Assembly: GCA_900314885.1 (NCBI GenBank)
Contig: OMWY01000019.1
Span: 7,297-39,296 of the forward strand
DNA: 32,000 bases
Source: an uncultured Eubacteriales bacterium
Lineage (GTDB): Bacteria > Bacillota > Clostridia > Lachnospirales > Lachnospiraceae
Direction of reading: 5' to 3'
This document shows positions 3,618 through 29,822 of this stretch, piece by piece. Position 1 is the stretch's first letter. Every line of letters starts with the position of its first letter. Position numbers and translations under genes: made by a program. The notes under the pieces are model-generated. The model ran no database searches, had not been told where the DNA came from, and saw nothing but the letters and a program-made list of their open reading frames with translations.

Positions 3618-4748
3618 ATGGAAAAAGAAGAGATTACGGACCTTCTTAAGACACTTTGCGGCATTCCATCGCCTTCGAATCATGAGGAAAAGAGGGCAGA
3701 GTTCTGCAGGAATTTTTTCTTTCAATGCGGCGCTTGTGATGTGTCAGTTGATGACGCCTTGAATGTACGCTGCTTAATAAAGGGAGTCGGTGGCGAGGAC
3801 GGTAAGCGTCCCATTATTGTATTTATGGCCCATACAGATACCGTTTTTCCTGATGATGAACCTATGCCTTATAGGGTATCCGATGGAAAAATATACTGCC
3901 CCGGAGTCGGTGATGATACGGCTAATCTGGCCCTCCTTCTGTTAGTAGCGAGAGGAATACTAAGGGACAATTTAAGGCCTCGCGACAAGGATATATTGAT
4001 AGTTTGTGATGCCGGAGAGGAAGGATTAGGCAATCTAAAGGGTTCCAGAGCCATTATGCGTGACTATGGGAATCGGGTAGAGGAATTCTACGCGGTTGAC
4101 GGAACGGTCCTTATGTATTGCGATTCCGCCGTCGGAAGCCACAGGTACGAGATAACCGTGACTACCGAGGGAGGCCATGCTTACGGGAGCTTCGGCAACA
4201 GGAACGCCATTTACTATATGTCATCCCTTATAACTGACCTCTATCAGATTAAGCTGGACTCCGACGGGCTTGTGACCTATAATGTAGGCTTAATAAGCGG
4301 CGGAACCTCAGTAAATACGATTGCCGATACGGCTACCTGCCTCTATGAATACAGAAGCAACGAGAAGGCTGATCTGGCATTTCTAAAGAATCACCTCTTT
4401 GCTCTCGCTAACGCATACAGGGCAAAGGGAATAGGAGTCTCGCTGAAGCTCATAGGAGAGCGGCCGTGCAGTAAGAAAATCGGGAAAAAGAAATTTTATA
4501 AAATGATGGACAGGGTGATTCCGGTGCTCGCTTATTATTTTAAGGGAGCCTACGATGACCCTGAAATATTTGAGTATAAGCATCCGGGCAGCACAGACTG
4601 CAATATCCCGCTCTCCATGGGGATTCCGGCCATTTCCTTCGGCTGCTATCTGGGAGCGGGAGCCCATACGAGGACTGAGTGGGTCGCTGAAGAGAGTTTA
4701 CTTCCGGGATTTTATGCCCTGAATGATATTGTGAGGTCTTACTTTTAG
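3618..4748 (+). CDS. M20 family metallopeptidase (peptidase T / ArgE-DapE-like)
   Basis: ATG at 3618 lies 5 nt after GAGAGG; the listed ORF begins at GTG 3612. Metal-ligand motifs AHTDTV, GVGDDTAN and AGEEGLGN are present. Confidence 0.8.
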   Translation: MEKEEITDLLKTLCGIPSPSNHEEKRAEFCRNFFFQCGACDVSVDDALNVRCLIKGVGGEDGKRPIIVFMAHTDTVFPDDEPMPYRVSDGKIYCPGVGDDTANLALLLLVARGILRDNLRPRDKDILIVCDAGEEGLGNLKGSRAIMRDYGNRVEEFYAVDGTVLMYCDSAVGSHRYEITVTTEGGHAYGSFGNRNAIYYMSSLITDLYQIKLDSDGLVTYNVGLISGGTSVNTIADTATCLYEYRSNEKADLAFLKNHLFALANAYRAKGIGVSLKLIGERPCSKKIGKKKFYKMMDRVIPVLAYYFKGAYDDPEIFEYKHPGSTDCNIPLSMGIPAISFGCYLGAGAHTRTEWVAEESLLPGFYALNDIVRSYF

Positions 4749-5335: not shown

Positions 5336-7162
5336 ATGTTTAAGACTGACAGGGCAGTTATTTCACTTCTTTTTGATATGCTTGGCGGGAAGACAGGCGA
5401 GATAAGCAAGGTAGATTATGTGCCTCAGAAGCCTGAATTTGACCCGACCATACCTATAGAGCAGGCATTTCCGCGCTCAACGCCTGAAGCTGAAGGAGTT
5501 CCTAGCAAGTTTATCTATGATCTCCTTGCGGAGCTTGCCGTGACTGAGAACGCGAATATGCACCATTTCATGATGCTAAGGCATGATAAGGTTATCTGTG
5601 AGACCAGCTTTGCTCCTTATCGGAACGGAGACTGGCATATAACCCACTCCATGTGCAAATCATTTACGGGAATGGCCATAGGCCTGCTCGTGGATGACGG
5701 AAGGCTGTCTCTCGATGACAAAATTGTCGATATTTTCGACACGGGGTGGCATGTCCTTAACCGCTTCAAGCTGCGCGATCTTACGGTCTGGAACCTCTTA
5801 ACCATGACAAGCGGTTCCGATTTTTACGAGACGGGAGCTATTTCCGGAAATAAATGGGTTGAGACTTATCTGAATGCCGATCTTAAGTTCCAACCGGGTA
5901 CCCAGTTTCACTATAACAGCATGAATTCCTATATGCTGTCGGCTATTGTCACAATAAAAACCGGAAAAACGATGTTTGATTTCCTGAAGGAGCGCATATT
6001 TAATCCTATGGGAATCACCCAGATTTTCTGGGAGGCGAGCCCTGAAGGAATTACGAAGGGAGGCTGGGGTCTCTTCATAAGGCCTGAGGACGCGGCGAAG
6101 CTCGGAAGCTTATATCTCCACCATGGAAACTGGCATGGTACCCGGCTCATTTCTGAGAAATGGGTCGCTGAGGCTACCATGAAGCAGGTGGAAAATAATT
6201 CCGATAAGCTAGGGTACGGTTACCAGCTCTGGCCGGGCGAGCGGCCGGGGAGCTTCGCCTATAACGGAATGATGGGCCAGGATGTATTTGTCTATCCTGA
6301 CCTCGATATGGTATTTACCATAAACGCGGGTGATCCTGAGGTTTTCCAGGATGGTGAGCTTGACCATGTGATTAAGAAGCATATGGTGGGCGCGCCGGTA
6401 TTTCCCGACAAACTCCCGCCTGACCCTGTGGGCTACAGCAATCTCTGCGAAATAGCGGAGCGGCTCCTTGACGGTGAGTATTTCACACCGAAGAATCTGG
6501 CCGGTGGCTGGGGCAGGAGGCAGACAAATTCAAGCGAGGGAAAGCCTCACTATTATTCCTGGAATAAGCCTCATTTCAGCCGCCATGACTTCTTCGTCTG
6601 GCTGAATGGAAGGACCTATGAGCTGGAAATGAAGAGCTGCGGACTTTTCCCTATTACTCTTCAGACCTTCCATAATAATTTTACGGACGGCATTTCGAAA
6701 ATAGGATTTAAGTATTATATGCACCTGCTTCATGTGCTTTTTTATGAAGGCGACTGCGTACAGGATGTTACGGTAGGCTTTCATAAGTCTATCGTTTCAA
6801 CCGTGGATGAGCATGGAGAAAAATATCTTGTCGGGACCGAAGGGGAGTATACCGAGGATGAGGACCATAATCCGGTTCTTAAGCTTCGCATAGCCTTTCT
6901 TGAGGAGGCGAGCAGCAGGAATGTCGTGATTCATTTTACCGGGGATTCGGTACTTGTTGAATTCGATGAGACTCCGGGCAAGCTCTTGATTATGGGTGGT
7001 CTTGACTTCTCGGTAAAGAGCGCCCTTGACAGCAATAAGTGGCTGTCTAATATTTTGGGAAACGGAGCTGAGAAGGTTATTACCGACGCTGTTCTCGCAA
7101 CTATTAGACCGCAGATAAACGGTAAATTAATAAAGGATAACGGAGCGGAAAATGAGAAATAA
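5336..7162 (+). CDS. Serine hydrolase, beta-lactamase/transpeptidase-like family, with a long C-terminal extension
   Basis: ATG at 5336 lies 7 nt after GAAGGGA; the listed ORF starts at TTG 5330. SxxK motif HSMCKSFTG and Y-x-N-like HYNSMN are present. About 250 residues of unassigned C-terminal sequence follow. Confidence 0.75.
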   Translation: MFKTDRAVISLLFDMLGGKTGEISKVDYVPQKPEFDPTIPIEQAFPRSTPEAEGVPSKFIYDLLAELAVTENANMHHFMMLRHDKVICETSFAPYRNGDWHITHSMCKSFTGMAIGLLVDDGRLSLDDKIVDIFDTGWHVLNRFKLRDLTVWNLLTMTSGSDFYETGAISGNKWVETYLNADLKFQPGTQFHYNSMNSYMLSAIVTIKTGKTMFDFLKERIFNPMGITQIFWEASPEGITKGGWGLFIRPEDAAKLGSLYLHHGNWHGTRLISEKWVAEATMKQVENNSDKLGYGYQLWPGERPGSFAYNGMMGQDVFVYPDLDMVFTINAGDPEVFQDGELDHVIKKHMVGAPVFPDKLPPDPVGYSNLCEIAERLLDGEYFTPKNLAGGWGRRQTNSSEGKPHYYSWNKPHFSRHDFFVWLNGRTYELEMKSCGLFPITLQTFHNNFTDGISKIGFKYYMHLLHVLFYEGDCVQDVTVGFHKSIVSTVDEHGEKYLVGTEGEYTEDEDHNPVLKLRIAFLEEASSRNVVIHFTGDSVLVEFDETPGKLLIMGGLDFSVKSALDSNKWLSNILGNGAEKVITDAVLATIRPQINGKLIKDNGAENEK

Positions 7163-13176: not shown

Positions 13177-13213
13177 TAAGTAGATTGTAGAAGTCAATTA
13201 TGGGAGAGTGCTT

Positions 13214-16171
13214 ATGACTAATCTTAATTCAGTTGATTATAGTAAACAGGACAACAACGTAAGCGAACTTACTAAGGCAGAAAGCCCTGCCCTTAGAAGT
13301 TTAAAGGATGGTCCTGTTGATGATATACCCCAGGTGAAGAAGTTTGAAACGGTGATAGAGAGACCGATAGAGCTTACAAGGGCTAAGCTTCCTTCATCTG
13401 TAATTGAGAATACCAAGGAGCAGGAACGGGCTTCAAGGGAACTAAAAGAGGAAGCAGAGAATGAGGCATCTGCCTTCAAGGATATCGCAGGGAAGCTTAA
13501 CTCCGATAATCTGAAGGCACTTATGGATGATGGACTTAATGCCGGCGATTCAAAAGCGGACATTATTAAGAAGAGCGTTGATAATTTTAAGGAGCATCGT
13601 GAGAAAAAAAGGGAGTACACCGCGGCGGAGGCGGAACATTTAAAAGAAAGCGCCGAAAATGCTCGCTCTATGGGACTTAACGACGAAGAGCGAGAGATAG
13701 CGGAGAAGCTTGAGCAGTCAGGATTAGCGGTAACAAAGGAAAATATCGAAAAAGTTCAGGGCGCTTTGGAGCTTGCGGGAAACGCAGTTAAGAATCTCAC
13801 TGACAGCGGCAAGAGGTACCTGGTTTCAGAAAATAAGACTCAGTCGATAATAAATATTTACATGGCAGGGCATATTGCAGGCGATGCTTCTTCGATTGAG
13901 AGAAGCGCAGACGGAGACCTGTACACGGAATCTGCCGAGAATGAAAAGGCCTGGCAGGAGGTGCTGCCGCAGGCCCGCAACATTTTAGCGAACGAAGGTG
14001 TGCCGGTAGATGACGAGACACTTGGCGTTTCCAAATGGCTCTTCTTTAACGACATCCCTATAAATGCCGAAAATATCGCTGAAGCTCTCTCTCTTAATAA
14101 CCTTAAGGATGGCGTACCTAAGGATGAAACAGAAGTTAAAATCGTCGATACGATCGCTCTGGGCGAGAAGAGCTATGATGCGATTATCGGTGATGTTGAC
14201 GAGCGTAAGGCTTCTTATGTTGTAAATTATCTTTCGAATGTGAATGCCGACAGCATTAAGGACATTACGGCGAGACGGAAGCTAGAGGAGGCAAGGCTTG
14301 CCCTGACTTATGAATCAGCCCTCGGTATGATTAGGAAGGGGATAGATATTGATCTTAGCAATCTCGAAGGACTGGTTGAAAGTCTTAAGAAAACTGAAAG
14401 TGACTACTACGCAGGTCTCATCGAGAATGCCACTTACGATTCAGAGCTTTCGCGGGAAAATGAGGGCGAGAGCCCCGAAAAGGTACTTGAGAGACCTAAG
14501 CTTAGCCTTAGTGATCAGGTTGCCCTTATGTCGAAGGTTCTCACGGTCAGGAATTATGCTGTAAATATGCCACTTGACAGCGACTACATGACAGGCGCTG
14601 TGGGTGAGAGCGAAAAGAGCAACAATACGATAAACCTTGAGAGGTTCCATGAGGCGGGCCTTGCCTACGAGGCGAGCGGAACCGAGGTTAGAAGGAATCT
14701 CGGCGACAGCATGAGAAAGGCCTTCAGAAATGTTGATGAAATTATTTCTAAAAATGGCCTTACGCCTACTGAAGCGAACAGGACGGCAGTAAAGATGCTT
14801 GCCATGAATAACGCTGATATTACAAGAGCTTCCATCATTTCCATGAGGAGGTCTACTATAATCGCTACAACCGCTCTTAAGGGGCTTAAGCCGGCTACAG
14901 TAGCGGGATTGATAAAGAACGGCAGGAATCCTCTCGATATGTCAATGGAGGAGCTCTTTGAGACCGTGAAGGAGATAAATAATTCAGCGCCACAGTCTGA
15001 TGAAAGCTATGCGGCCTATTTATATAAGATTGAAAACAGGGGCGATATCACTGATGAGGAGCGTCAGGCTTATATAGGAATTTACAGGCTCTTAAATAAG
15101 CTGGAGCAAAATGATGGCGGCGATATAGGCTCGGTTGTCCTTGCGGGACGCGAGCTCACACTCAGAAATATGCTTTCAGCCGTAAGAAGCAGACGGCAGG
15201 CGGGCTTCGATGTCACGGTTGACGAGGACCTGGGCGAGCTTGCTGATTTTACGGAAGCTTCAAACAGGATCGACAGACAGATTGATGGCGCCTTTATTTC
15301 CGACATAGCGGCGAAGCTAAAGGATGAGCTATCTGAAGCGTCAGAGGACTACCTTAAGGATCAGAGCGCAGAGCTTGCTCGCTTCATGAGTGAAAACTCT
15401 GACAGTATGCAGGGTCTCATCACGGAAGGGGCGAAGCTGACGGCCTATAATCTTGCTGCCGAAAGCGACATCAGAAGGGGCAGGAAGTCAATTAATGCCA
15501 TAACCGAAAATCTGTCTGAGGATGATCTTGATGAGCTTGGTGGGAGCTCTGAGAAGTCCGTAGCGGAGATGGATGATCCGGAGAAATTAACTACTGACGT
15601 AGAGGCAATCAATGGAAAATTATCAGATAAGGCCGATGACCTTGCGGCTGCTGACAATATCACCTTTGATCGCTTCGCTGCCCTCCTTGCGGCAAAGAGA
15701 ACGCTTGCCTTATCAAGCGTAAGGATTCGAAGCGGGAAGTTCGATATCCCTGTATTTGTAAATAACAGGCTCGCGAACCTCTCTGTGTCGATAAATGAAG
15801 GAAGCAGCGGTTCAGAGAGGGGAAGCATAGACATTGCAATAGATGGTGACATAAATGGCTCATTTACTGTGAACGGTGATACGGTGAGTGGATTCATGGC
15901 TTCGGAGAATGAAAATATGTTGCAGGCCATGAGCGGAGCTCTGGATATGCTCACTGAAAATATTGAAAATTCGGGATTTCAGGCCGGAGAAATTTCATTT
16001 CACAATGTGAAGACGGTTCAGAATTCCGGAAACAATGTCGATAATAAGGATAGTAATGTTAAAACAAGGAAGCTGTACCGGGCGGCGAAGGTTATCGCCA
16101 CCTTTATGCTAGGGAGAGTAAGGGGTATGGCCGAAAATGGAACGGATTCCATGAGTACAGTTAAGGAGTGA
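13214..16171 (+). CDS. Large acidic, probably helical protein of unknown function with a FliK-like C-terminal region
   Basis: 985-aa ORF from ATG 13214 (GTG 13208 is also possible) after GGGAGAG. It ends 4 nt before the flagellin gene. Residues encoded at about 15740-16009 (FDIPVFVNN...IDIAIDGDINGSFTVNGDTVSGFMASENENMLQAMSGALDMLTENIENSGFQAGEISF) resemble the FliK C-terminal (Flg_hook) pattern. Confidence 0.7.
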   Translation: MTNLNSVDYSKQDNNVSELTKAESPALRSLKDGPVDDIPQVKKFETVIERPIELTRAKLPSSVIENTKEQERASRELKEEAENEASAFKDIAGKLNSDNLKALMDDGLNAGDSKADIIKKSVDNFKEHREKKREYTAAEAEHLKESAENARSMGLNDEEREIAEKLEQSGLAVTKENIEKVQGALELAGNAVKNLTDSGKRYLVSENKTQSIINIYMAGHIAGDASSIERSADGDLYTESAENEKAWQEVLPQARNILANEGVPVDDETLGVSKWLFFNDIPINAENIAEALSLNNLKDGVPKDETEVKIVDTIALGEKSYDAIIGDVDERKASYVVNYLSNVNADSIKDITARRKLEEARLALTYESALGMIRKGIDIDLSNLEGLVESLKKTESDYYAGLIENATYDSELSRENEGESPEKVLERPKLSLSDQVALMSKVLTVRNYAVNMPLDSDYMTGAVGESEKSNNTINLERFHEAGLAYEASGTEVRRNLGDSMRKAFRNVDEIISKNGLTPTEANRTAVKMLAMNNADITRASIISMRRSTIIATTALKGLKPATVAGLIKNGRNPLDMSMEELFETVKEINNSAPQSDESYAAYLYKIENRGDITDEERQAYIGIYRLLNKLEQNDGGDIGSVVLAGRELTLRNMLSAVRSRRQAGFDVTVDEDLGELADFTEASNRIDRQIDGAFISDIAAKLKDELSEASEDYLKDQSAELARFMSENSDSMQGLITEGAKLTAYNLAAESDIRRGRKSINAITENLSEDDLDELGGSSEKSVAEMDDPEKLTTDVEAINGKLSDKADDLAAADNITFDRFAALLAAKRTLALSSVRIRSGKFDIPVFVNNRLANLSVSINEGSSGSERGSIDIAIDGDINGSFTVNGDTVSGFMASENENMLQAMSGALDMLTENIENSGFQAGEISFHNVKTVQNSGNNVDNKDSNVKTRKLYRAAKVIATFMLGRVRGMAENGTDSMSTVKE

Positions 16172-16175
16172 GACT

Positions 16176-17603
16176 ATGAGAATTAACCATAATATGTCAG
16201 CGATTCGCGCTAACATGCATCTTTCCATTTCGAGCGACAGACTCTCTAAGAGCAGCGAGAAGCTTGCCAGCGGCTATAAGATTAATCACGCATTTGATGA
16301 CCCTGCGGGGCTCGCCATTTCCAATAAAATGCGTCTTCAGATAAAGTCACTTAAGAAGGCGACTGAGAATACCGGAAACGGAATCTCGGTTATGCAGATA
16401 GCTGATGGGGCGCTTGAGGAAGTGACCTCCATGATTCAGCGTATGAATGAGCTCTCTGTAAAGGCCGCGAACGGTACAAATTCAAATAACGACAGACAGA
16501 ATATCCAGGATGAAGTGAGCCAGCTGATGTCTGAGATAGACAGAATCGCTGAGACGACCGATTACAATACCATGAAGATTCTTAACGGTGATCTCGACAG
16601 GAGATGCATAACGAACACCGATGGTATAACCATGCAGAATGTCGGCATGGGAGTTGAGGATGGGAAATACCAGATAAAGATAGCAAGTGGAACTGACTTG
16701 AACTATCTGGATAAGAGTAATGTTAGCCTTGTGGATACTGATGCTACAGTCTCAAAATTCACTGATGTGACTCCTAAGCCTGTGATTACGGTAGAAGGCA
16801 CGAATACGAACTTCAAGGAAGAATCTACAACTTCGGAAACTGCGAATGATTCGGACACTTCAAGAACCTATGAGGCGACCGGTGACAGGAAGTTCGTAAA
16901 GGGCCGCATGCTTGATGATCCGAGAGTAGTTGTGACAGGAAAAGACGGATTCAGCATGGAATTCAGGCTGGATCTGGATGAGCTCTATAAGAAGAATAAA
17001 GATAACATTACATTTAAATATGAGTATTTTGATGGAACTGACACTTACACAAAGACAGTGGTGAATGGTGGAACGGCTACTTATACCGATAAGGCTGGGA
17101 ATGCTATTAACGATGCGGATATTAAAGCAAAGTTGGATGCCAGTGAACCAGCAAGCGCTAAGTATACCGGCGCCGACATCACCGTCACCGGTACTGTCCT
17201 TGACGCGGGCTACGCTACCCTCCAACTTGGCGCTAACACAGGCGAGGATATGGACGTCTATATCCCTAAGATTAGCACCGAGACCCTCGGTATAGAGGAT
17301 CTCGACGTCACAACCGAAAACGACGCTACAGAGGCAGTGAGGAAGGTCAGCACCGCCCTTGCGAACGTATCAAGCTTCAGAAGCAGACTCGGCGCCTATC
17401 AGAACCGCCTCGAGAGCACCTTAAGGAACAGCAACACAACCGTAGAGAATATGACCCAGTCACTCTCAAGGGTTATGGATACGGATATGGCTGAAGAGAT
17501 GACGGAATATACCCAGCTCCAGGTACTCGAGCAGGCAGGAACCAGCGTTCTTGCTGAGGCAAATCAGCGCCCTGAGACAATTCTTTCCATACTTCAGAGC
17601 TGA
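16176..17603 (+). CDS. fliC: Flagellin
   Basis: N-terminus MRINHNMSAIRANMHL...KLASGYKIN...DDPAGLAISNKM...NGISVMQIADGAL. C-terminus RSRLGAYQNRLESTLRN...LQVLEQAGTSVLAEANQRPETILSILQS. AAGGAG RBS. The central variable region is about 200 aa. Confidence 0.93.
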   Translation: MRINHNMSAIRANMHLSISSDRLSKSSEKLASGYKINHAFDDPAGLAISNKMRLQIKSLKKATENTGNGISVMQIADGALEEVTSMIQRMNELSVKAANGTNSNNDRQNIQDEVSQLMSEIDRIAETTDYNTMKILNGDLDRRCITNTDGITMQNVGMGVEDGKYQIKIASGTDLNYLDKSNVSLVDTDATVSKFTDVTPKPVITVEGTNTNFKEESTTSETANDSDTSRTYEATGDRKFVKGRMLDDPRVVVTGKDGFSMEFRLDLDELYKKNKDNITFKYEYFDGTDTYTKTVVNGGTATYTDKAGNAINDADIKAKLDASEPASAKYTGADITVTGTVLDAGYATLQLGANTGEDMDVYIPKISTETLGIEDLDVTTENDATEAVRKVSTALANVSSFRSRLGAYQNRLESTLRNSNTTVENMTQSLSRVMDTDMAEEMTEYTQLQVLEQAGTSVLAEANQRPETILSILQS

Positions 17604-22062: not shown

Positions 22063-22071
22063 TTTCGCATT

Positions 22072-22103
22072 AAAAAGAGCCGTGCATTGCACGGCTCTTT
22101 TTT
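22072..22103 (+). terminator. Rho-independent terminator after mtnN (copy 1 of a duplicated palindrome)
   Basis: AAAAA-GAGCCGTGCA-T-TGCACGGCTC-TTTTTT: a perfect 10-bp stem at 22077-22086 / 22088-22097 with flanking A and T runs. Confidence 0.8.
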
Positions 22104-22153
22104 GTTGCGAGAAAGATGGTTGGAGGAAATTAAAAAAAATTACAGATATCGGT

Positions 22154-22178
22154 TAAGTTTTTTTGGGGGGGTCGATAT
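22154..22178 (+). promoter_or_regulatory. Candidate sigma-28 (FliA/SigD)-type promoter for the flagellin-pilus operon
   Basis: GTCGATAT (22171-22178) matches 7 of 8 positions of GCCGATAT. TAAG (22154-22157) serves as the -35. The spacer is 13 nt against a consensus of about 15 and consists of T7G6. It lies 35 nt upstream of the ATG. Confidence 0.45.
22158..22171. repeat. Back-to-back homopolymers T7 then G7
   Basis: Read directly from the sequence: ...aagTTTTTTTGGGGGGGtcgatat... Confidence 0.95.
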
Positions 22179-22212
22179 AAATAGTGTAAATGTGATGGAA
22201 GGAGGATGAGTA

Positions 22213-24279
22213 ATGATTGCTATATCGTACAATGCCGCGGCAGCAAACGCTTCGAGGCATTTTAAAGTAAATACGAAAGACCAGTCGAAGAACTTAGAGA
22301 AGCTCTCCTCCGGTTACAGAATAAACAGGTCAGCGGATGACGCGACCGGTCTTTCGATCTCTGAGAAGATGCGTACCCTCATCAGGGGACTCAGTCAGGC
22401 TACAGATAACTGTCAGGACGGAATCTCTATGCTACAGGTAGCTGACGGATCACTTGCTGAAATGACCAGCATGATGCACCGCATGACTGAGCTTTCTGTA
22501 AAGTCAGCGAATGGCACCAACTCTCAAAAAGACCGACAGATACTACAGAATGAGATAAAGCAGCTTAAACTTGAGATAAACGGCCAGGTTGAGAAGACAA
22601 AGTTTAACGATATTAAGATCTTCGATCCATCGGGAATGAACGGTGTGGCTGATGCTTTTATTGGCACTGCCACCGGTACGCCTGCGGATGATTCCATAAC
22701 AAATTATTCGTTCGGAGCGGATGGAAACGGAATAAGTATAAATGGCACAACATTTCCATATGAGGATATAAAGAATTCAGCCGGTGAACCTATGAGCTCG
22801 CTGAAAGATGGAACTTACAAACTGAGGTACAACGGTGTAACATTTCCCTTAACCATTAAGAATGTGAGTGACAGGAGCCAATTGACGCAGCTGGTGGGAG
22901 CGTTTTCGGTTACGAGTGAAAAGAAGGAAGCCCTTCCAGCGAGAAAGGCAGTAGAATCAGCTTCATTTTCTTTTGATCCTGTTGCTGGCGCAGACATCAA
23001 AGATGGCACAAAATTTGTCATAAAGGCTGACAGCGATGGAATAAACGGGAGATTTAAATGGAAAGATCTCTGCCCGGCTTTAGCGGAAGGCAAGGATCTC
23101 GGGGCCAACCAGATTACAATATCTGTTCCTATACAGAAGGGTGTAAGCTTTGACATAAAAGTTAATAATGGCGCCAAGCTTGAGCAAGTGGTTGATTCAA
23201 TAAATAATTTTTCGGCAACGGTGAAAGCAGGGCAGATAAAAGGTATAGACGTTACAAGATTTTTCTCAGGCTATACAATTACAGGAGGCCAGTTGCCGGT
23301 TAATCTTACAAGTAATACCAGTAAGACCTTTGACTGGAGCCTTCCGGGAGATCCTGCAAATGATGATGCTTTAAAGGACATCGCAAAAAAGCTCAATTGT
23401 GACGTGACTGATCTGACAGGCGGTGACTTAAAAATATATTTTCAGAACAAGAATGGATATAATGTACCGACAGCCGTGCTGACCGCAAAAAGTTCAAAAG
23501 GAGGCCAGGGCTCGGTCACTTATACTATGTCTAAGGAAGATAGCGATAGCTTAAAAGCCCTGTTACAGCCGGGAAATGCTTTCCCTATAAAAAGTCATGT
23601 AGCTGATGCTAAGTTTAGTTATAAAGGAAGTTCGTTTGTAGGTCATCTTATCGCAATAAGAGATGTCACCGGAACGGAAATTCCCGGGCGTGGGCCCGGC
23701 ATATTGTTTAACAGCAATAATATTCCTTCGAAGGTGGAATTTAATATTAGTCATGAAAGTGTTCTTAACTCAAATGGTGAAGTGAAGTCAATGGAGGAAG
23801 GAAATATTCTTCCACCCCAGTATAAATACAACTTCGATACATTTGAAAGTGAATCTCTTTATGATCCTGACTATCCTAAGAACAAATGGTGGATTCAGTC
23901 AGGCGAGGGAACCATGAACGGTATGATGCTTTCCGTGGGGCAGGTTAGCTGTAATCTGCTGGGGCTCGACGACATGGATATTTCGACGGAAAACGGAGCT
24001 ACCCAGGGCATAAGACAGACGGGAAAGGCTCTTAAGACTCTTAGTAAGATTCGTTCCGAACTTGGAGCTGAGCAGAACCGCTTAGAGCATACAGTGTTAA
24101 ATAATAAGAACGCGGTAGAAAATACTACTGCTTCCGAATCTCTTATAAGAGATACCGATATGAGTACGGCTATGGTTTCGTTCCACAAGTTAAATATACT
24201 TGAAATGACAGGTGAGAGCATGTTGGCTCAGGCAAATAAAAATCCTGAGGATGTACTGAAGCTCTTGGAGACAAAGTAA
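22213..24279 (+). CDS. Flagellin-family protein with a very large (~400 aa) central insert
   Basis: GGAAGGAGGA RBS. N-terminal D0/D1 region: KLSSGYRINRSADDATGLSISEKMRTLIRGLSQATDNCQDGISMLQVADGSL...SVKSANGTNSQKDRQILQNEIKQL. C-terminal region: IRSELGAEQNRLEHTVLNNKN...IRDTDMSTAMVSFHKLNILEMTGESMLAQANKNPEDVLKLLE. Confidence 0.88.
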   Translation: MIAISYNAAAANASRHFKVNTKDQSKNLEKLSSGYRINRSADDATGLSISEKMRTLIRGLSQATDNCQDGISMLQVADGSLAEMTSMMHRMTELSVKSANGTNSQKDRQILQNEIKQLKLEINGQVEKTKFNDIKIFDPSGMNGVADAFIGTATGTPADDSITNYSFGADGNGISINGTTFPYEDIKNSAGEPMSSLKDGTYKLRYNGVTFPLTIKNVSDRSQLTQLVGAFSVTSEKKEALPARKAVESASFSFDPVAGADIKDGTKFVIKADSDGINGRFKWKDLCPALAEGKDLGANQITISVPIQKGVSFDIKVNNGAKLEQVVDSINNFSATVKAGQIKGIDVTRFFSGYTITGGQLPVNLTSNTSKTFDWSLPGDPANDDALKDIAKKLNCDVTDLTGGDLKIYFQNKNGYNVPTAVLTAKSSKGGQGSVTYTMSKEDSDSLKALLQPGNAFPIKSHVADAKFSYKGSSFVGHLIAIRDVTGTEIPGRGPGILFNSNNIPSKVEFNISHESVLNSNGEVKSMEEGNILPPQYKYNFDTFESESLYDPDYPKNKWWIQSGEGTMNGMMLSVGQVSCNLLGLDDMDISTENGATQGIRQTGKALKTLSKIRSELGAEQNRLEHTVLNNKNAVENTTASESLIRDTDMSTAMVSFHKLNILEMTGESMLAQANKNPEDVLKLLETK

Positions 24280-24289
24280 CGGGGGATAA

Positions 24290-24508
24290 ATGACAGCTAC
24301 TAATATCAAGGATGTCAGCGACCACATAAAGAAAATGAAATTCCGTCGAAAGGTTTTTGGCGGAGTTGATGAGCGAGATGTGTGGCGGCAGATAAAACTG
24401 CTCGATGATGATTACAGGAACCTGTACAGGATCCTCTGTGAAGAATATCAGAAAAACATAGAACTTATGAAGCAGAGGAGTAATGGGGAAGTCAAAACAA
24501 GACAGTAA
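24290..24508 (+). CDS. Small DivIVA-domain protein
   Basis: 72-aa ORF 10 nt after the flagellin stop (GGGGGAT RBS). KFRRKVFGGVDERDVWRQIKLLDDDYRNL follows the DivIVA/GpsB N-terminal pattern F-x4-(R)GY-x3-(E)VD-x-FL-x6-DY-x2-L. Confidence 0.55.
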   Translation: MTATNIKDVSDHIKKMKFRRKVFGGVDERDVWRQIKLLDDDYRNLYRILCEEYQKNIELMKQRSNGEVKTRQ

Positions 24509-25070
24509 AAGCACACGTAAGCCAAGTATATGGGAATGGTGGCCGACTGAGAAAGCCATAGAAGCAAGATATGAGAGAGCGGTCTGGCATGAAGAAATAA
24601 TCTCATTTTTGATGAGATTATTTGCTCTGATAGCTCTGCTTGTGATTCTGTTCCTCATGGTATTTGGTATATTTACCGAAGATGACATGGAAATGTCGCC
24701 TGCGGTGAGAGCCGGTGATCTTGCTATATATCAAAGGGGAATTAAGGAGTTCAGGCTCGAAGATGTGCTCATATATGAGGCTGATGGGAAAGAAAGAATC
24801 GGCAGGGTGGTAGCGAGGCCAACCGACACGGTTGAAATTACCTCGGAAGGCGCCGTAAAGGTTAATGGCTACGTCCAGATTGAGGAGAGAATAACCAATG
24901 GTACTTCTATCGAGCCAGGCGTAAGCTATCCGCTTACACTTAAGGCCGATGAGTATTTTATACTGGCAGATGCGCGCGGAGATGCGAAGGACAGCAGGCT
25001 TTTTGGCCCCGTTAGTAGGGACCATATACTAGGAAGAGTTGCATTTCTTTTACGCATGGATGATTTCTAA
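24483..25070 (+). CDS. Signal peptidase I (S26) homologue with a substituted catalytic dyad; SipA/LepA-like pilus assembly factor candidate
   Basis: AGAGGAG RBS. One TM helix (LFALIALLVILFLMVFGIF). S26 boxes are recognisable: DMEMSPAVRAGD (box B/C), ERIGRVVARPTDTV (box D) and YFILADARGDAKDSRLFGPV...ILGRV (box E). Ungapped alignment puts Glu at the nucleophile Ser position and Gly at the general-base Lys position. Confidence 0.78.
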   Translation: MGKSKQDSKSTRKPSIWEWWPTEKAIEARYERAVWHEEIISFLMRLFALIALLVILFLMVFGIFTEDDMEMSPAVRAGDLAIYQRGIKEFRLEDVLIYEADGKERIGRVVARPTDTVEITSEGAVKVNGYVQIEERITNGTSIEPGVSYPLTLKADEYFILADARGDAKDSRLFGPVSRDHILGRVAFLLRMDDF

Positions 25071-25093: not shown

Positions 25094-26467
25094 ATGAAGA
25101 AAATCATTCGGAAAGTTATAGTTACCATGGTTATGGCATCTACTATGGTAACTATGCTGTGGACAAGTCCACCGGGTAGAAACGCAGAGGCTGCGAGTGA
25201 TGGATTAAGCTTTGATCAGCAGATAAAAGCCAATGATGTAACCGACGGTAGTCATATAAGCGGAATTACGACGCCGGATTTTAAAGTAGAATACAGGCTT
25301 GATCCCATACTTAACGTTAGTTCAAATGATAAGAGGTATGAAACCGACCTTGCGAATTATCCGGATGGGAGTGTTAAGGATGCTACAGGTGTAATAAATT
25401 ATACCAAGGAAATTACTTCGAAGATCACGGATGCATCAGGTATCGCAAGTGCGGAAATTTCCGCTAATGATATATTTAACGGTAAAAAATTTGCGGAAAA
25501 CAGCAAGGTTTATCGTTATAACGTGAGCATTGTTGGTCTATATGTAAAGGAGAATGATACTACCTGGAGCAGTAGTAACCTGCTTAATTCTCCTGACAGT
25601 GGAATAGTTGTTCCGCATATTACGCCGATTATGGATGTTTCGATAGACAGCGATGGTAAGATAGCTCAGATTGCTATGTGGGATTCTTCAGGAACATCTA
25701 AGACGAGTGGTTTTGTAGCAAGGAACAGTTCCGGGAACGGTAATCCTTTTATTGCTACTGTGTACGCCGATGATGGTTCCGGAGCTATAGAATACAACAC
25801 CAACGATGTAGTAATTACGTCTGATTATATCGGCGGAAATTGGGACAGTATTCATGGCGGTATATCATATTCTGTGACCTTTACCAACCTGCCTTATTAT
25901 CTTGTATCAAGCGATGCTGTATTTGAAAGTCTGATTGTTGGCACGAACGCAAGAAGCTGGAAGGCTGAGAGCGGGAATACAACAGCTAAGGCCGTGGCTC
26001 TAGGTACACTTGATCAAACTGATGAGATTACTTTTCATGGTATTCCGGCTGTCGATGGAGCGGGAAATAAGGTGACTTATTCATCAACCATTCATTTTGA
26101 AAATCTTGATAAGGATGAGTCCTTGAAGAAGCAATATGCTTCAGCCATCTTTTATGGGGCTGTCGCCGACCGTATTTCCTCTGTAAGCTCACTTGCCGAA
26201 TTCGCTTCCTCCGGACAGTCGGTTGGATATGATAATAATGCGTATAAGCAGGGAGAAGATTATCGTACCATAGGCGCTTCTGAAGTTTCTGCAACAAGCG
26301 TAAACGCAAACAGGTTCGTCATTTTTGATCCTGATCAGCTTGTAGTAGTCGGTGTAGTAAAAAATTCTGCTCCTGCCGTATTTATGATAATAGCAGGGAT
26401 ACTGATTCTCATGCTTCTCTTAATAGGAAGGAGACACGAGGATAATTACCATTTTAAAAGGAGGTAA
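25094..26467 (+). CDS. Pilin-like sortase-substrate candidate 1 (non-LPXTG C-terminal sorting signal)
   Basis: Signal peptide ending AEA|AS. C-terminus has the conserved block RFVIFDPDQLVVVGVVKNSAPAVF, then a hydrophobic helix MIIAGILILMLLLIG, then the basic tail RRHEDNYHFKRR. It is a paralogue of the next gene. Confidence 0.68.
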   Translation: MKKIIRKVIVTMVMASTMVTMLWTSPPGRNAEAASDGLSFDQQIKANDVTDGSHISGITTPDFKVEYRLDPILNVSSNDKRYETDLANYPDGSVKDATGVINYTKEITSKITDASGIASAEISANDIFNGKKFAENSKVYRYNVSIVGLYVKENDTTWSSSNLLNSPDSGIVVPHITPIMDVSIDSDGKIAQIAMWDSSGTSKTSGFVARNSSGNGNPFIATVYADDGSGAIEYNTNDVVITSDYIGGNWDSIHGGISYSVTFTNLPYYLVSSDAVFESLIVGTNARSWKAESGNTTAKAVALGTLDQTDEITFHGIPAVDGAGNKVTYSSTIHFENLDKDESLKKQYASAIFYGAVADRISSVSSLAEFASSGQSVGYDNNAYKQGEDYRTIGASEVSATSVNANRFVIFDPDQLVVVGVVKNSAPAVFMIIAGILILMLLLIGRRHEDNYHFKRR

Positions 26468-26473
26468 ATAAAA

Positions 26474-27829
26474 ATGGGAAAGAAATGGACTAAAGTAATG
26501 ATAAGCGTGGCTTCTGCCGGTATGCTTGCCATAAGTATGCTTACGGCGATGCCAGCAAGACAGGTGAAGGCGGCAAGCACAACAAGCTTTAAGCAGGAGA
26601 TTATTGTAAATGATGTAACTGATGGAAATCATACCGCTAAGGTAAAGATGCCAAAGATTACAGTTACGTACCGCCTGACACCTGTTGTAGATAGCGCAGG
26701 CCTGCCTGCTAATGACTCTCGTTACGCGGATAAATTGGATTTATTTATTAACGGCAGCGTAAAGGATTCGACCAAAGTTGTTGAAACATCTGTAGTTATT
26801 GAAGATAATGTAGCATCAGATGATGAGGGCCATTATGTAAAAGACATAACCCCTGATGATATTGGCTTAACCGGATTTGTAAATGCCAGCAGGGTATACA
26901 GATATAAGATAGAGATTTCGGGTGTTTATCGTGGTGACGATACGAAGGATGACGCACATAATCTGTTAAAATTATCTCAGGATGATTTTACTTTCCCTGA
27001 GAATCAGTTAGGAATTCTGGATGTTTCTGTGGATACAGATAAAAAGGTGGCAGCTATCGCCTTCTGGAATTCGACAGGGACCAACAAACTTGATGGATTT
27101 ACCGGTGCTGAAGGTGATGGAGCGGATGCCTTTAAATATAACGTAGCGGATCTCCAGATATCATCGGATTATATAGGTAAGAACTGGGACAGCTTACATG
27201 GCGGTTTCGTCTATACCGTTAAAATTGATAAGCTTCCGAACGATACCTTTAAGCAAGCTAAAGATGTGAAAGATTGCTTATATGATGATGGACGTAGTTG
27301 GGACGTAAGTGCCTCAAATGGCTGGACACCGGGAACGAGTACAAGTACAATAATTCTTGAAGGTACGTTGGATCAGAATTCGCAAATACTGATTGGGGGG
27401 CTTCCTAAAGGCGTTACATACTTAGGCACTATTGATTTTACTAAACTTGAAAAAGCTGTGGTAGGTAATACGACGGAAGATTTGAGAGCGAAATATGGTC
27501 CTGCCATATTCTATGGAGCGAAGGTAAAGCGAGTAGAAGGGATTAATGATATGACTTCTTTTGCCGGAAGCGAATATGCCGGAAAGTATGAGTATAAGGC
27601 CTATGAAACGGGAAAGGATACAAGAGCGCTTGATAATGCAAGCGAGGTAGTACTTGAAAATAATGGTGATTCCAATTCAAGCCGTTTTATTATCTTCGAC
27701 CCATCCGATCTCGTAGTTGTTGGTGTCGTAAGAAATACATTACCGGCTGTAGGGCTTATATGTATCGCCGGAGCTATTGCGATAGCGCTCTTCTTCACAA
27801 GAAAGAAAAAGCTGCCTGTAATTGAGTGA
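26474..27829 (+). CDS. Pilin-like sortase-substrate candidate 2 (LPAVG-type C-terminal sorting signal)
   Basis: Signal peptide ending VKA|AS. C-terminus RFIIFDPSDLVVVGVVRNTLPAVG, then LICIAGAIAIALFF, then TRKKK. It shares blocks with the upstream paralogue (NDVTDG.H, VYRY, DVS.D.D.K.A.IA.W.S.GT, SDYIG.NWDS.HGG, AIFYGA). Confidence 0.68.
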   Translation: MGKKWTKVMISVASAGMLAISMLTAMPARQVKAASTTSFKQEIIVNDVTDGNHTAKVKMPKITVTYRLTPVVDSAGLPANDSRYADKLDLFINGSVKDSTKVVETSVVIEDNVASDDEGHYVKDITPDDIGLTGFVNASRVYRYKIEISGVYRGDDTKDDAHNLLKLSQDDFTFPENQLGILDVSVDTDKKVAAIAFWNSTGTNKLDGFTGAEGDGADAFKYNVADLQISSDYIGKNWDSLHGGFVYTVKIDKLPNDTFKQAKDVKDCLYDDGRSWDVSASNGWTPGTSTSTIILEGTLDQNSQILIGGLPKGVTYLGTIDFTKLEKAVVGNTTEDLRAKYGPAIFYGAKVKRVEGINDMTSFAGSEYAGKYEYKAYETGKDTRALDNASEVVLENNGDSNSSRFIIFDPSDLVVVGVVRNTLPAVGLICIAGAIAIALFFTRKKKLPVIE

Positions 27830-27846
27830 TTATTTTAAGAACTTTT

Positions 27847-27876
27847 ACCGGGATCACGGACTGTCGCGATCCCGGT
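27847..27876 (+). promoter_or_regulatory. Stem-loop between pilin gene 2 and the sortase gene (partial terminator or mRNA-stability element candidate)
   Basis: ACCGGGATC (27847-27855) / GATCCCGGT (27868-27876) with a 12-nt loop, followed by the interrupted T-rich stretch TATGTTATTTAT. Confidence 0.4.
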
Positions 27877-27912
27877 TATGTTATTTATAAGACAGATAAG
27901 GAGATGATGACC

Positions 27913-28677
27913 ATGAGGTTTTTAGCAGGATTATCAAGGACCGGAGATAAATTTATAAGGATAATTCTTGAGATAATAATGGTCATTTTCTTCTTGCTTG
28001 GCGGATATATTTTGTGGCATACGTGGATGGTTTATCATTCAGCTTTTGACCTGTCGGGAGTGGAGCAGTATAAGCCTGAATTAGCGGAAGAGGGTATGAG
28101 CCTCGAAGAAATCAGAAAAATAAATCCAGATGTGATAGGGTGGATATCCATAGATGGCACGCATATAGATTACCCTCTGCTTCAAGGACGCGATAACCAG
28201 GAATATTTAAATAAGGATATTAATGGTGATTTTGCCCTCCATGGATCAATATATCTCGATTCATTAAATAACCGAGACTTTTCTGACAGTTATAATATTA
28301 TTTATGGTCACCATATGGATAATGGTGGCATGTTTGGTGATATTGTAAAATTTAAGGATGAAAAATATTTTGAGAGTCACGAAAGCGGAAACCTGTGGCT
28401 TAAGAATAAGACATATAAACTTGAAATATGCGCAATAATGATGGAAGATGCTTATGACAGGGAGTTTACAGGCCCAAAAGGAAAGGATTCCGATATAACG
28501 GATTTTATGAAAACAGTATATAGCAGGGCGATTTATTCGAGACCTGTCGAGGTAAGTTCAGCTGATCGCTTAGCAGGACTCCTAACCTGCGACTCAGCAT
28601 TTACAAATGGGAGAAATATCCTAGTATGTAAGCTGGTACCGGAAAAAGATGATGATACTGTGCATATATTAAAATAG
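27913..28677 (+). CDS. srtB: Class B sortase
   Basis: ATG at 27913 lies 9 nt after AAGGAG; in-frame ATGs at 27904 and 27907 are also possible, and the listed ORF starts at 27826. There is an N-terminal TM helix. Motifs: INPDVIGWISIDGTHIDYPLLQGRDNQEYLNKD, IIYGHHM (catalytic His), LLTCDS (catalytic Cys) and GRNILV (Arg). The layout closely parallels S. aureus SrtB as I recall it. Confidence 0.88.
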   Translation: MRFLAGLSRTGDKFIRIILEIIMVIFFLLGGYILWHTWMVYHSAFDLSGVEQYKPELAEEGMSLEEIRKINPDVIGWISIDGTHIDYPLLQGRDNQEYLNKDINGDFALHGSIYLDSLNNRDFSDSYNIIYGHHMDNGGMFGDIVKFKDEKYFESHESGNLWLKNKTYKLEICAIMMEDAYDREFTGPKGKDSDITDFMKTVYSRAIYSRPVEVSSADRLAGLLTCDSAFTNGRNILVCKLVPEKDDDTVHILK

Positions 28678-28728: not shown

Positions 28729-28759
28729 AAAAGAGCCGTGCAATGCACGGCTCTTTTTT
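28729..28759. terminator. Bidirectional rho-independent terminator between srtB and murG (copy 2 of the duplicated palindrome)
   Basis: AAAA-GAGCCGTGCA-A-TGCACGGCTC-TTTTTT, with the stem at 28733-28742 / 28744-28753. The T-run touches the murG stop codon. Confidence 0.8.
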
Positions 28760-29822
28760 ATTTAGCTGCTTTCTCAATTAGTTCTGTAATAATCTTTATG
28801 GAGTCTGACTGACTGCTTTCTTTCATGTTCCTGATATAGGTGTCGCGGTTGAGGTAGACCTCGGCAACTGCCTTTGTGAGGGTCTCGTTCGTTACATTTT
28901 CCTCAGGAAGCATCTTCGCGAAGCCCTGCTTTTCGAAGCTCTTTGCGTTAAGTATCTGGTCGCCTCGGCTCGCGTCAGCGGCGAGAGGGATGAGAACCGA
29001 CGGAATTTTAAGGGCAGCAAACTCACAAATCGCGTTAGCCCCAGCGCGGGAAACTACGAGATCGGTTATCGCGAAAATGTCCCGCATTTCCTTATCCACG
29101 TACTCAAACTGTCTGTAGCCGATAGTGCCGTTATAGCTCTCGTCAGTTTTTCCTCGACCGCAGAGGTGGACGACGTCAAAGGTTTTAAGAAGCTCAGGAA
29201 GCGCCTTCCTCACTGCCTCATTTACCCTTACGGCGCCAAGACTTCCGCCCATAACAAGGAGTATAGGTTTATCGCCTGACATTCCGGTAAAGCTAAGTCC
29301 TTTCTCGCGACTTCCCATGAAGAGTTCACGCCTTATAGGAGTGCCGGTAAGAACTGCCTTCCCCTGCGGAAGAGAAGCTAGTGCCTCCGGGAAATTCGCG
29401 CACACGTAATCAGCCTTAGGTATGCAGAGCTTGTTCGCAAGGCCCGGCGACATATCGGATTCATGAATTATTGAAGGAATATGTAACTTGCTTGCGGCAA
29501 AAACTACAGGCACTGAGACGAAGCCGCCCTTAGAAAATACCACGTCAGGCTTGATTTTCTTAAGCGCTTCGACCGCTTCGTTGTAGCCCTTGATGACACG
29601 AAAGGGGTCTGAGAAGTTTTTCCAGGAAAAATACCTTCTTAATTTTCCTGAGGAAATGCCCGTATAGGGAATACCAAGTTCCTCTATGAGACCCTTCTCC
29701 ATGCCCTCGTATGAGCCTATATAGTAGACCTCATAGCCTGCCTTCTGAAGTTCAGGTATAAGGGCTATGTTAGGTGTAACATGGCCGGCTGTTCCACCGC
29801 CTGTGAGAACTATTTTTTTCAT
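28758..29822 (-). CDS. murG: UDP-N-acetylglucosamine--N-acetylmuramyl-(pentapeptide) pyrophosphoryl-undecaprenol N-acetylglucosamine transferase
   Basis: ATG at 29822 follows GGAGGG; the listed ORF extends 8 codons further upstream. Motifs MKKIVLTGGGTAGHVTPNIAL and VMGGSLGA are present. Confidence 0.93.
   Translation of the reverse strand: MKKIVLTGGGTAGHVTPNIALIPELQKAGYEVYYIGSYEGMEKGLIEELGIPYTGISSGKLRRYFSWKNFSDPFRVIKGYNEAVEALKKIKPDVVFSKGGFVSVPVVFAASKLHIPSIIHESDMSPGLANKLCIPKADYVCANFPEALASLPQGKAVLTGTPIRRELFMGSREKGLSFTGMSGDKPILLVMGGSLGAVRVNEAVRKALPELLKTFDVVHLCGRGKTDESYNGTIGYRQFEYVDKEMRDIFAITDLVVSRAGANAICEFAALKIPSVLIPLAADASRGDQILNAKSFEKQGFAKMLPEENVTNETLTKAVAEVYLNRDTYIRNMKESSQSDSIKIITELIEKAAK

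Follow-up and report, generated by a model that had tools for sequence, protein, structure and literature searches.

A flagellin-linked predicted pilus locus of uncultured Lachnospiraceae with a probable all-aliphatic counterpart of the VTPTG sorting motif

Components of the predicted pilus operon

The DNA analysed here is a 32,000-nt window from an uncultured Lachnospiraceae bacterium (contig OMWY01000019.1, positions 7,297-39,296), and all coordinates are positions within this window. On its + strand it encodes, in this order, a flagellin, a 72-residue protein, a homologue of S26 signal peptidases, two pilins (A and B), and a class B sortase. We focused on the C-terminal ends of the two pilins. 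An earlier inspection of the letters alone (the sequence-only reading) had described both ends as sortase substrates of noncanonical type and had proposed x-P-A-V-x as the recognition motif of the adjoining sortase. Our analysis confirms most of that description but places the counterpart of the sorting pentapeptide elsewhere, probably at an all-aliphatic L-V-V-V-G whose position is seven residues upstream. The pilus genes and the elements within them are as follows.

24290-24508, + strand: DivIVA-like small protein, 72 residues, with KFRxxxFGGVDExDVW; overlaps the SipA-like gene
24483-25070, + strand: SipA/LepA-like signal-peptidase homologue (Peptidase_S26, TIGR02227); Ser/Lys dyad lost
25094-26467, + strand: pilin A, 457 residues; predicted signal-peptide cleavage after AEA33, candidate pilin lysine K203 (25700-25702), C-terminal sorting signal
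26339-26356, + strand: L-V-V-V-G-V of pilin A, residues 416-421; proposed counterpart of V-T-P-T-G-V, predicted scissile bond V419-G420
26366-26383, + strand: S-A-P-A-V-F of pilin A, the motif of the sequence-only reading; probably equivalent to the (I/V)-A-P-Y element, with which the membrane segment opens
26474-27829, + strand: pilin B, 451 residues; predicted signal-peptide cleavage after VKA33, candidate pilin lysine K205 (27086-27088), C-terminal sorting signal
27710-27727, + strand: L-V-V-V-G-V of pilin B, residues 413-418; proposed sortase motif, predicted scissile bond V416-G417
27737-27754, + strand: T-L-P-A-V-G of pilin B, the motif of the sequence-only reading; start of the predicted membrane helix
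27847-27876, + strand: hairpin followed by a U-rich tract in the gap between pilin B and the sortase; possible attenuator
27826-28677, + strand: class B sortase, with His in YGHHM (28303-28317), Cys in LLTCDS (28579-28596), and Arg in NGRN (28606-28617)

The two pilins are paralogues with 36% identity overall and 17/24 identical residues over the C-terminal block, and the block they share therefore reflects homology plus extra constraint rather than chance. Neither pilin matched a family in Pfam or NCBIfam, and sequence searches of the PDB, run with a single protein or with the family profile, returned only noise; the fold search alone succeeded. With the AlphaFold2 (AF2) model of pilin B (predicted local distance difference test [pLDDT], 74; predicted TM score [pTM], 0.70), Foldseek placed the T-antigens of Streptococcus pyogenes and PitB at the top (6n0a, 3b2m, 4s3l, and 7w7i; E values of 1e-10 to 1e-8, probability of 1.0), although the TM scores were modest for this model (0.26 to 0.33 on the query). 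Alignment of the family profile with that of the DUF7601 pilins using hhalign gave a probability of 98.2% (E value, 5e-14). Together these matches bear out the pilin-like nature assigned from the letters alone. The signal-peptide cleavage sites of both pilins were read from the sequence by us. K205 of pilin B (K203 of pilin A), in the context G-T-x-K-x-x-G-F/Y, is the sole invariant lysine across the family, and in the profile-profile alignment it falls on the conserved lysine of the canonical pilins upstream of their N-D-Y-G segment. By position it corresponds to K161 of Spy0128 (PMC7900414) and is a putative acceptor.

The best PDB match of the S26 protein is SipA of S. pyogenes (4n31; E value, 4.8e-20), with MEMSPAV aligned on NDMSPAL and RIGRVVA on KVGRIAA. 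At the positions of the catalytic dyad it carries Glu70 (24690-24692) and Gly107 (24801-24803), aligned to Asp48 and Gly85, the dyad replacements of SipA (PMC4049620). Cleavage by this protein at the A-x-A-like "APA" was considered and rejected, as the catalytic dyad is absent.

The small protein encoded upstream is homologous to the products of 71- to 78-residue genes at the same position in family and canonical pilus loci (E values of 1e-14 to 1e-33). These genes, none with a signal peptide, lie at 24290-24508 in the window, 4053-4283 in locus L014, 4503-4739 in L015, 6457-6672 in L013, 2135-2353 in L011, and 2265-2498 in L016. The small protein had no match in Pfam or NCBIfam, and the copy in L011 showed only a weak DivIVA match (E value, 0.03). 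We know of no described role in pilus assembly for a DivIVA-like protein of about 72 residues.

The sortase scored 186.2 bits against TIGR03064 (cutoff, 153.75). Its best PDB matches are 4y4q and the pilus polymerase Spy0129 (3psq), with YGHHM, TC, and NGR aligned and the His-Cys-Arg residues kept; it is thus an intact sortase of class B, the class given in the sequence-only reading. The true start of its gene is likely the ATG at 27905-27914 that follows AAGGAG (27899-27904), because both the homologues and AAGGAG point there, and the open reading frame (ORF) counted from GTG 27826 is probably about 26 to 29 codons too long. The hairpin in the gap behind pilin B is stable (-20.9 kcal/mol, z = -4.2), with 0/200 shuffles folding as well, and it may act as an attenuator that sets the pilin-to-sortase ratio.

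Because all of these components match the SipA-dependent class-B-sortase pili of streptococci (PMC7900414, PMC3178606), the locus is assigned, on homology, to the pilus operons of streptococcal FCT/PI-2 type, with an inactive SipA-like signal peptidase, two pilins of T-antigen/PitB fold, and a class B sortase. With S. pyogenes FCT-2/3/4 (Spy0128/FctA, SipA/LepA, and SrtC1/Spy0129) it shares the dyad-less SipA-like S26 protein, the class B pilus sortase, the fold of the backbone pilin, a pilin lysine that lies outside a YPKN motif (PMC7900414), and a motif that runs straight into G-V-A-M…A-P… (peptide KDFEVPTGVAM; PMC3019223). It differs from the FCT systems in carrying LVVVG instead of (E/Q/V)(V/P)PTG, in having Leu and not Ser two residues before the sortase Cys, in the lack of conserved isopeptide triads, and in encoding a flagellin upstream but no Cpa-like tip or FctB-like base pilin. 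The PI-2 islands of Streptococcus pneumoniae and Streptococcus oralis (PitA, SipA, PitB, and SrtG1/2) are alike in gene order, which runs from a large first gene through sipA and the backbone pilin to the class B sortase, and structures of PitB are among the top fold matches of pilin B. The PI-2 pilus of S. pneumoniae is made of the backbone pilin alone (PMC3178606). PitB has VTPTG and PitA VPETG (PMC3178606), whereas the motif at the present locus contains neither P nor T and a flagellin replaces the von Willebrand factor A (vWA) adhesin. The system descends from FCT/PI-2-type pili and would operate in a similar way, but it is a variant rather than a plain member, since it lacks the x-x-P-T-G motif and conserved isopeptide triads and the window contains no tip or base pilin. 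No description of this system was found in Pfam, NCBIfam, or the literature searched, and the literature searches yielded nothing that joins sortases, flagellins, and Lachnospiraceae pilins and no account of motifs of this kind.

Conservation and register of the C-terminal signal

Pilin A ends in …RFVIFDPDQLVVVGVVKNSAPAVF, 18 hydrophobic residues (26375-26428), and the basic tail RRHEDNYHFKRR, while pilin B ends in …RFIIFDPSDLVVVGVVRNTLPAVG, 18 hydrophobic residues (27746-27799), and the basic tail RKKKLPVIE. The tripartite ends described in the sequence-only reading, consisting of a conserved block, a hydrophobic segment, and a basic tail, are therefore present in both ORFs; the block common to the two is RF(V/I)IFDPxxLVVVGVV(K/R)N(S/T)(A/L)PAV(F/G), and APAVF at 26369-26383 and LPAVG at 27740-27754 were found exactly where they had been reported. 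Regular-expression scans of both proteins found no LPxTG, NPxTN, xVPTG, PxTG, or PTG anywhere, in agreement with the absence of known motifs noted earlier, and no other ORF of the window carries a similar C-terminal signal.

No curated sorting-signal model matched, so the claim that the signal lies outside the known types also stands. Against TIGR03065, the model of the QVPTGV class (cutoff, 21.35 bits), the C termini in the window gave no match and the best family member (P0026) reached 14.5 bits, compared with 22.6 and 31.2 bits for canonical controls. Against TIGR01167, the LPXTG anchor model (cutoff, 15.9), pilin B scored 13.9 to 15.2 bits over profile positions 11 to 33 only, which cover the hydrophobic segment and tail, and pilin A gave no match. 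Weak matches of distant family members to PEP-CTERM, PGF/Loki-CTERM, GVDTG-CTERM, and Rumino_NPXTG were rejected, because they fall on the hydrophobic segment and cover no motif, and because the locus encodes a sortase.

The family formed by these pilins and their homologues is very small. Word-indexed searching of 5.8 billion proteins gave 20 family matches, as did exhaustive searching of 1.84 billion cluster representatives with a profile, and among GTDB representative genomes, searched with close alignment, the family occurs in two Lachnospiraceae metagenome-assembled genomes only. Conservation was counted per column over 27 unique family C termini, anchored on the proline of the P-A-V block (position 0). 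V-G at positions -8 and -7 and P at position 0 are invariant (27/27) and fixed in spacing, and R at -20 (26/27), D at -15 (26/27), P at -14 (25/27), and V at -6 (25/27) are nearly so. Position +1 is A in 17 and G in 10 of the C termini, and position +2, the V of the originally proposed block, varies among V, I, A, M, and L. The close clade spells the block [ST]-x-P-A-[V/A/M/L], and more distant members have NTAPGVI, NLLPGIV, HALPGII, NYIPGII, DFLPGIL, and similar forms. The signal had been called conserved; this holds for its proline and the small residue that follows, but not for its valine, and comparison of these ends indicates that "PAV" is the form that P-[A/G]-h takes in one clade.

The nearest sortases outside the family (41 to 47% identical) sit in two loci, the metagenomic L014 and L015 of Oribacterium sp. 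WCC10, both with the order vWA tip adhesin, 76- to 78-residue protein, S26 homologue, DUF7601 pilin, SrtB, and base pilin. Like the window, both carry the DivIVA-like gene and an S26 gene ahead of the pilin gene, and their pilin profiles are homologous; the differences are VTPTG as the motif, S-T-C in the sortases, and the presence of a vWA adhesin for the tip and of a base pilin that is FctA-like. Their pilins end in …NNKDAVTPTGIVMNVAPYALLVVV…RKRR and …NNRENVTPTGVAMDIAPYALMVAL…RKR. The consensus of 70 unique canonical relatives is V-T-P-T-G-[V/I]-[A/V]-M-[D/N]-[I/V]-A-P-Y-A-[L/A]-M. T-G is found in 80/81 of the canonical sequences, the exception being a fragment, while the proline of TPT is occasionally V, I, or A (ITVTG, IAVTG, and IAITG).

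These canonical signals hold two elements, the pentapeptide and a proline that lies six residues after its G and 16 before the basic tail. Family members likewise have an invariant P six residues after an invariant G and 16 to 18 before the basic tail, as seen when P0032 of the family (IVVGVAMDFLPGILMV) is set against the pilin of L015 (TPTGVAMDIAPYALMV). Downstream of the G the two signals are nearly identical (GVAMDIAPYALMV in the DUF7601 loci and GVAMDFLPGILMV in P0032). The TIGR03065 domain shares this architecture and the register downstream of G, and it puts the glycine of "VG" in P0026 on profile position 5, the G of QVPTG.

A profile hidden Markov model (HMM) built from the 70 canonical Lachnospiraceae pilin ends was scored on 33 family ends and on 1,980 composition-preserving shuffles. 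A single register was obtained for all 33 family ends, with T on V, G on G, V on V/I, P on P, and Y on G/A. Scores of 9.6 to 23.5 bits were reached by 24/33 family ends, including pilin B (11.7 bits), compared with 9.1 bits for the best shuffle. The HMM thus sets the proline of P-A-V on that of A-P-Y and the canonical T-G on the family V-G, and the proposal that the P-A-V block occupies the QVPTG position was not borne out; the canonical relatives carry VTPTG plus a separate A-P-Y. An xPAVx recognition motif for the sortase is likewise not supported. In the AF2 model of pilin B, the last strand (residues 402 to 408, RFIIF) is followed by a low-confidence coil at 415 to 422 (pLDDT below 50) and by a helix at 422 to 443 that starts with T-L-P, a modelled layout that fits a flexible motif followed by a proline-capped helix.

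Collectively, these alignments suggest that the counterpart of xVPTG is probably L-V-V-V-G (residues 416 to 420 in pilin A and 413 to 417 in pilin B), with the P-A-V block seven residues downstream. Across the family, the pentapeptide would be an all-aliphatic L-[I/V]-[V/I/L]-V-G that has replaced (V)T-P-T-G. The proline is assigned to the membrane segment and not to the pentapeptide, because the canonical relatives have it besides T-G and at the same distances from G and from the tail; P-A(-V) is probably the conserved A-P-(Y/F) element that opens the membrane-spanning segment.

Sortase signature, proposed processing, and alternatives

All sortases linked to the family have [L/I/V]-T-C-[D/E] around the active-site Cys (LLTCDS in the window, LITCDS in L001 and L004, LVTCEN in L010-L013, and LVTCER in L016). 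The other homologues with a readable motif have S-T-C (103/104) or, once, T-T-C. Homologues with the aliphatic signature outside the aligned loci are all 59 to 99.6% identical to a family-locus sortase, and for one of them (P0069) a look-up of its locus shows an adjoining family pilin. W-[H/Y] also replaces W-D in the N-terminal segment of the family sortases, but this change occurs in some non-family enzymes as well and is less specific. Ser219 of Spy0129 is the polar groove residue that replaces Ile182 of SaSrtA (PMC3019223), and S231 of BaSrtB is predicted to bind the P4 residue, with the S231A variant being inactive (PMC11987632). By alignment, the position two residues before the Cys, at which Leu/Ile/Val has taken the place of Ser, would sit in the substrate groove. 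Heme-uptake class B sortases (Staphylococcus aureus, NPQTN; Bacillus anthracis, NPKTG) and SrtB of Clostridioides difficile ((S/P)PXTG) belong to the same enzyme family and fold class. In contrast, they recognize polar motifs in which P and T occur, and they attach proteins to the wall instead of polymerising pilins; the Ser two residues before their Cys is predicted to bind the P4 Asn (PMC11987632), where the enzyme in the window has Leu253.

Homology has been established here for each of the components, as have the register of the alignment, the pattern of conservation, and the signature of the sortase, and all of these are consistent with the following course of pilus assembly. The pilins would be exported by Sec and their signal peptides removed, and the 18-residue, proline-capped hydrophobic helix with its basic tail would keep them in the membrane. 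The adjoining sortase would then cut the V-G bond of LVVVG, and the Val carboxyl would be transferred to K203 (A) or K205 (B) of the next subunit with the assistance of the catalytically dead SipA homologue. We slightly favor this reading as a whole, that is, a QVPTGV-class signal with an aliphatic segment in place of TPT, cleavage between V and G, and joining to the conserved pilin lysine. Cleavage itself, the identity of the scissile bond, polymerisation, and the role of the lysine are predictions, made with the same narrow preference.

Several points weigh against V-G cleavage. We know of no characterised sortase substrate that lacks both Pro and a P1 Thr, Ala, or Ser. A contribution of the P1 Thr hydroxyl to the oxyanion hole has been proposed (PMC11987632). 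With the HMM of canonical ends, pilin A reaches only 5.3 bits, which is below the shuffle maximum, yet it adopts the same register. LVVVGVV could instead be a structural or membrane-interface strand, and the confidence of the AF2 model is low there. The isopeptide triad residues that are invariant in canonical pilins (K46, E167, E332, and N387 in the numbering of P0158) have no invariant counterparts in the family, in which a test limited to sequence conservation detected neither an invariant Glu or Asn nor any invariant Lys besides the pilin lysine; family members are therefore not typical T-antigens. Moreover, in accessory proteins of distant loci (described below) the equivalent G is preceded by T, S, N, or C, and the P1 preference of the family sortases is therefore not clear-cut.

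The strongest competitor, which we nevertheless regard as unlikely, is that the pentapeptide has decayed and that the pilins are plainly anchored through their transmembrane segment, leaving the sortase idle or acting on other proteins. The loss of both Pro and Thr at the motif position, the absence of a match to any curated sorting-signal model, and the lack of conserved canonical triads agree with decay, and distant loci do encode a second secreted protein, in one case with PLTG, that could be the real substrate. The locus in the window, in contrast, has no other candidate substrate, and in every locus examined the sortase keeps its catalytic triad and adjoins the pilin. V-G, its spacing to P, and the pilin lysine are invariant at 22 to 30% overall identity, none of which plain anchoring needs, and the change in the sortase groove residue is clade specific and does not resemble decay.

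The originally proposed motif, which in its family-wide form would be x-P-[A/G]-h with the cut after A/G or nearby, appears less probable still. Its proline is invariant and is always followed by a small residue (A or G), it directly precedes the hydrophobic segment as QVPTG-type motifs do, and Ala at P1 has a precedent in LPLAG of FctB (PMC7900414). Its proline, on the other hand, exists in canonical relatives in addition to T-G and at the same distance from G and tail, the HMM register is unanimous (33/33) for V-G, and the V of "PAV" is not conserved. As the AF2 helix starts at residue 422, the bond to be cut would also lie inside or at the membrane interface, and the invariant V-G(-V) would be left unexplained. 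Processing at the R-F-V-I-F-D-P block, either by Asp-Pro autocleavage or as the sortase site, seems very improbable. Among the 27 unique ends, 25 to 26 retain its R, D, and P, and about 31 residues separate the block from the basic tail, as is typical of sorting signals such as those of the LPXTG type; the block is modelled, however, as the last beta-strand of the C-terminal domain (402 to 408; block pLDDT, 84), and the two residues after D-P are variable.

If cleavage indeed follows the Val of LVVVG, this locus would represent a natural enzyme/substrate pair without the Pro and the P1 Thr of the described motifs known to us and would permit a direct test of the role proposed for the Thr hydroxyl in the oxyanion hole. 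The position two residues before the Cys, Ser elsewhere and Leu/Ile/Val here, would then be a specificity-determining residue, and the pair would offer an orthogonal motif for sortase-mediated ligation. Substrate searches based on LPXTG and its variants overlook proteins of this kind.

Flagellin, flanking hairpins, and neighbouring genes

The pilus genes stand within a larger block, whose remaining features are as follows.

22074-22100 (repeat within 22069-22106), no strand: left palindromic terminator hairpin, 27-nt core
22213-24279, + strand: flagellin, 688 residues; Pfam Flagellin_N at 4-138 and Flagellin_C at 602-685
28730-28756 (repeat within 28729-28762), no strand: right palindromic terminator hairpin, second copy, at the end of the operon

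Wherever the contig of a family locus includes the gene directly upstream of the pilus genes, that gene encodes a flagellin of about 670 to 710 residues. It occupies this slot in the window, in L001-L006, and in L013 (3371-5497 in L001, 4894-7008 in L004, and 3477-5492 in L013), and the contigs of L011 (1-1203) and L016 (3-98) include no more than its C-terminal part. The pilins of these flagellin-bearing loci share only 24 to 47% mutual identity, and the same slot in the nearest canonical loci is taken by the vWA tip adhesin. The flagellin of the window carries no sorting signal, and its AF2 model from the single sequence had a pLDDT of 34.6, too low for use. Only 10 nt separate its gene from the next ORF, and the first terminator-like site downstream is at 28729, after the sortase; from this layout the flagellin is probably co-transcribed with the pilus genes, which would couple the production of pilus and flagellum.

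A sigma-28/SigD-like sequence, TAAG-N13/14-(G)TCGATAT, was spotted at 22140-22190, about 30 nt upstream of the ribosome-binding site of the flagellin gene, by eye against the sigma-28 consensus TAAA-N15-GCCGATAT. If this promoter is real, the pilus genes would be part of the late flagellar regulon.

Taking the pilins, sortases, and flagellins together, we consider it possible, with somewhat less than even confidence, that a small clade of class B sortases of rumen/gut Lachnospiraceae has exchanged (V)TPT↓G for L-V-V-V↓G, with Ser changed to Leu/Ile/Val in the enzyme in step, and that the resulting pilus operon has swapped the tip adhesin for a giant flagellin that is apparently co-transcribed. 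The constant link with a large flagellin suggests an unstudied coupling of motility and adhesion organelles in gut Lachnospiraceae.

Two copies of a 33- to 34-nt palindromic hairpin (AAAAGAGCCGTGCA(T/A)TGCACGGCTCTTTT), 6,656 nt apart, bracket the block from flagellin to sortase exactly. This pattern matched twice in the window and in none of 100 shuffles. Relatives carry the flagellin-to-sortase block between different flanking genes. The bracketing hairpin copies and the differing flanks of the relatives suggest that the 6.6-kb block is a mobile cassette inserted into a bidirectional terminator.

Four distant loci encode an additional secreted protein, very acidic and of low complexity, in the gap between the flagellin and the small gene (3-1652 in L010, 1209-2138 in L011, 5493-6467 in L013, and 127-2268 in L016); no gene of this kind is present in the window. 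Up to the G, their C-terminal signals read PLT-G, ADS-G, SDN-G, and VPC-G. In three of the four proteins the C terminus runs from x-G through six residues and P-[F/G] to a membrane segment and a basic tail (RR), and that of L013 (VPC-G) has Arg instead of Pro. These accessory proteins may serve as subunits of the pilus base or tip, or a different sortase may act on them.

A second flagellin of 475 residues (16176-17603) follows a 987-residue DUF6240 protein (13208-16171) in the window; at least two flagellin genes thus fall within 8 kb in this organism. In L016, a Sigma70_r2 gene (5752-6471) follows the sortase.

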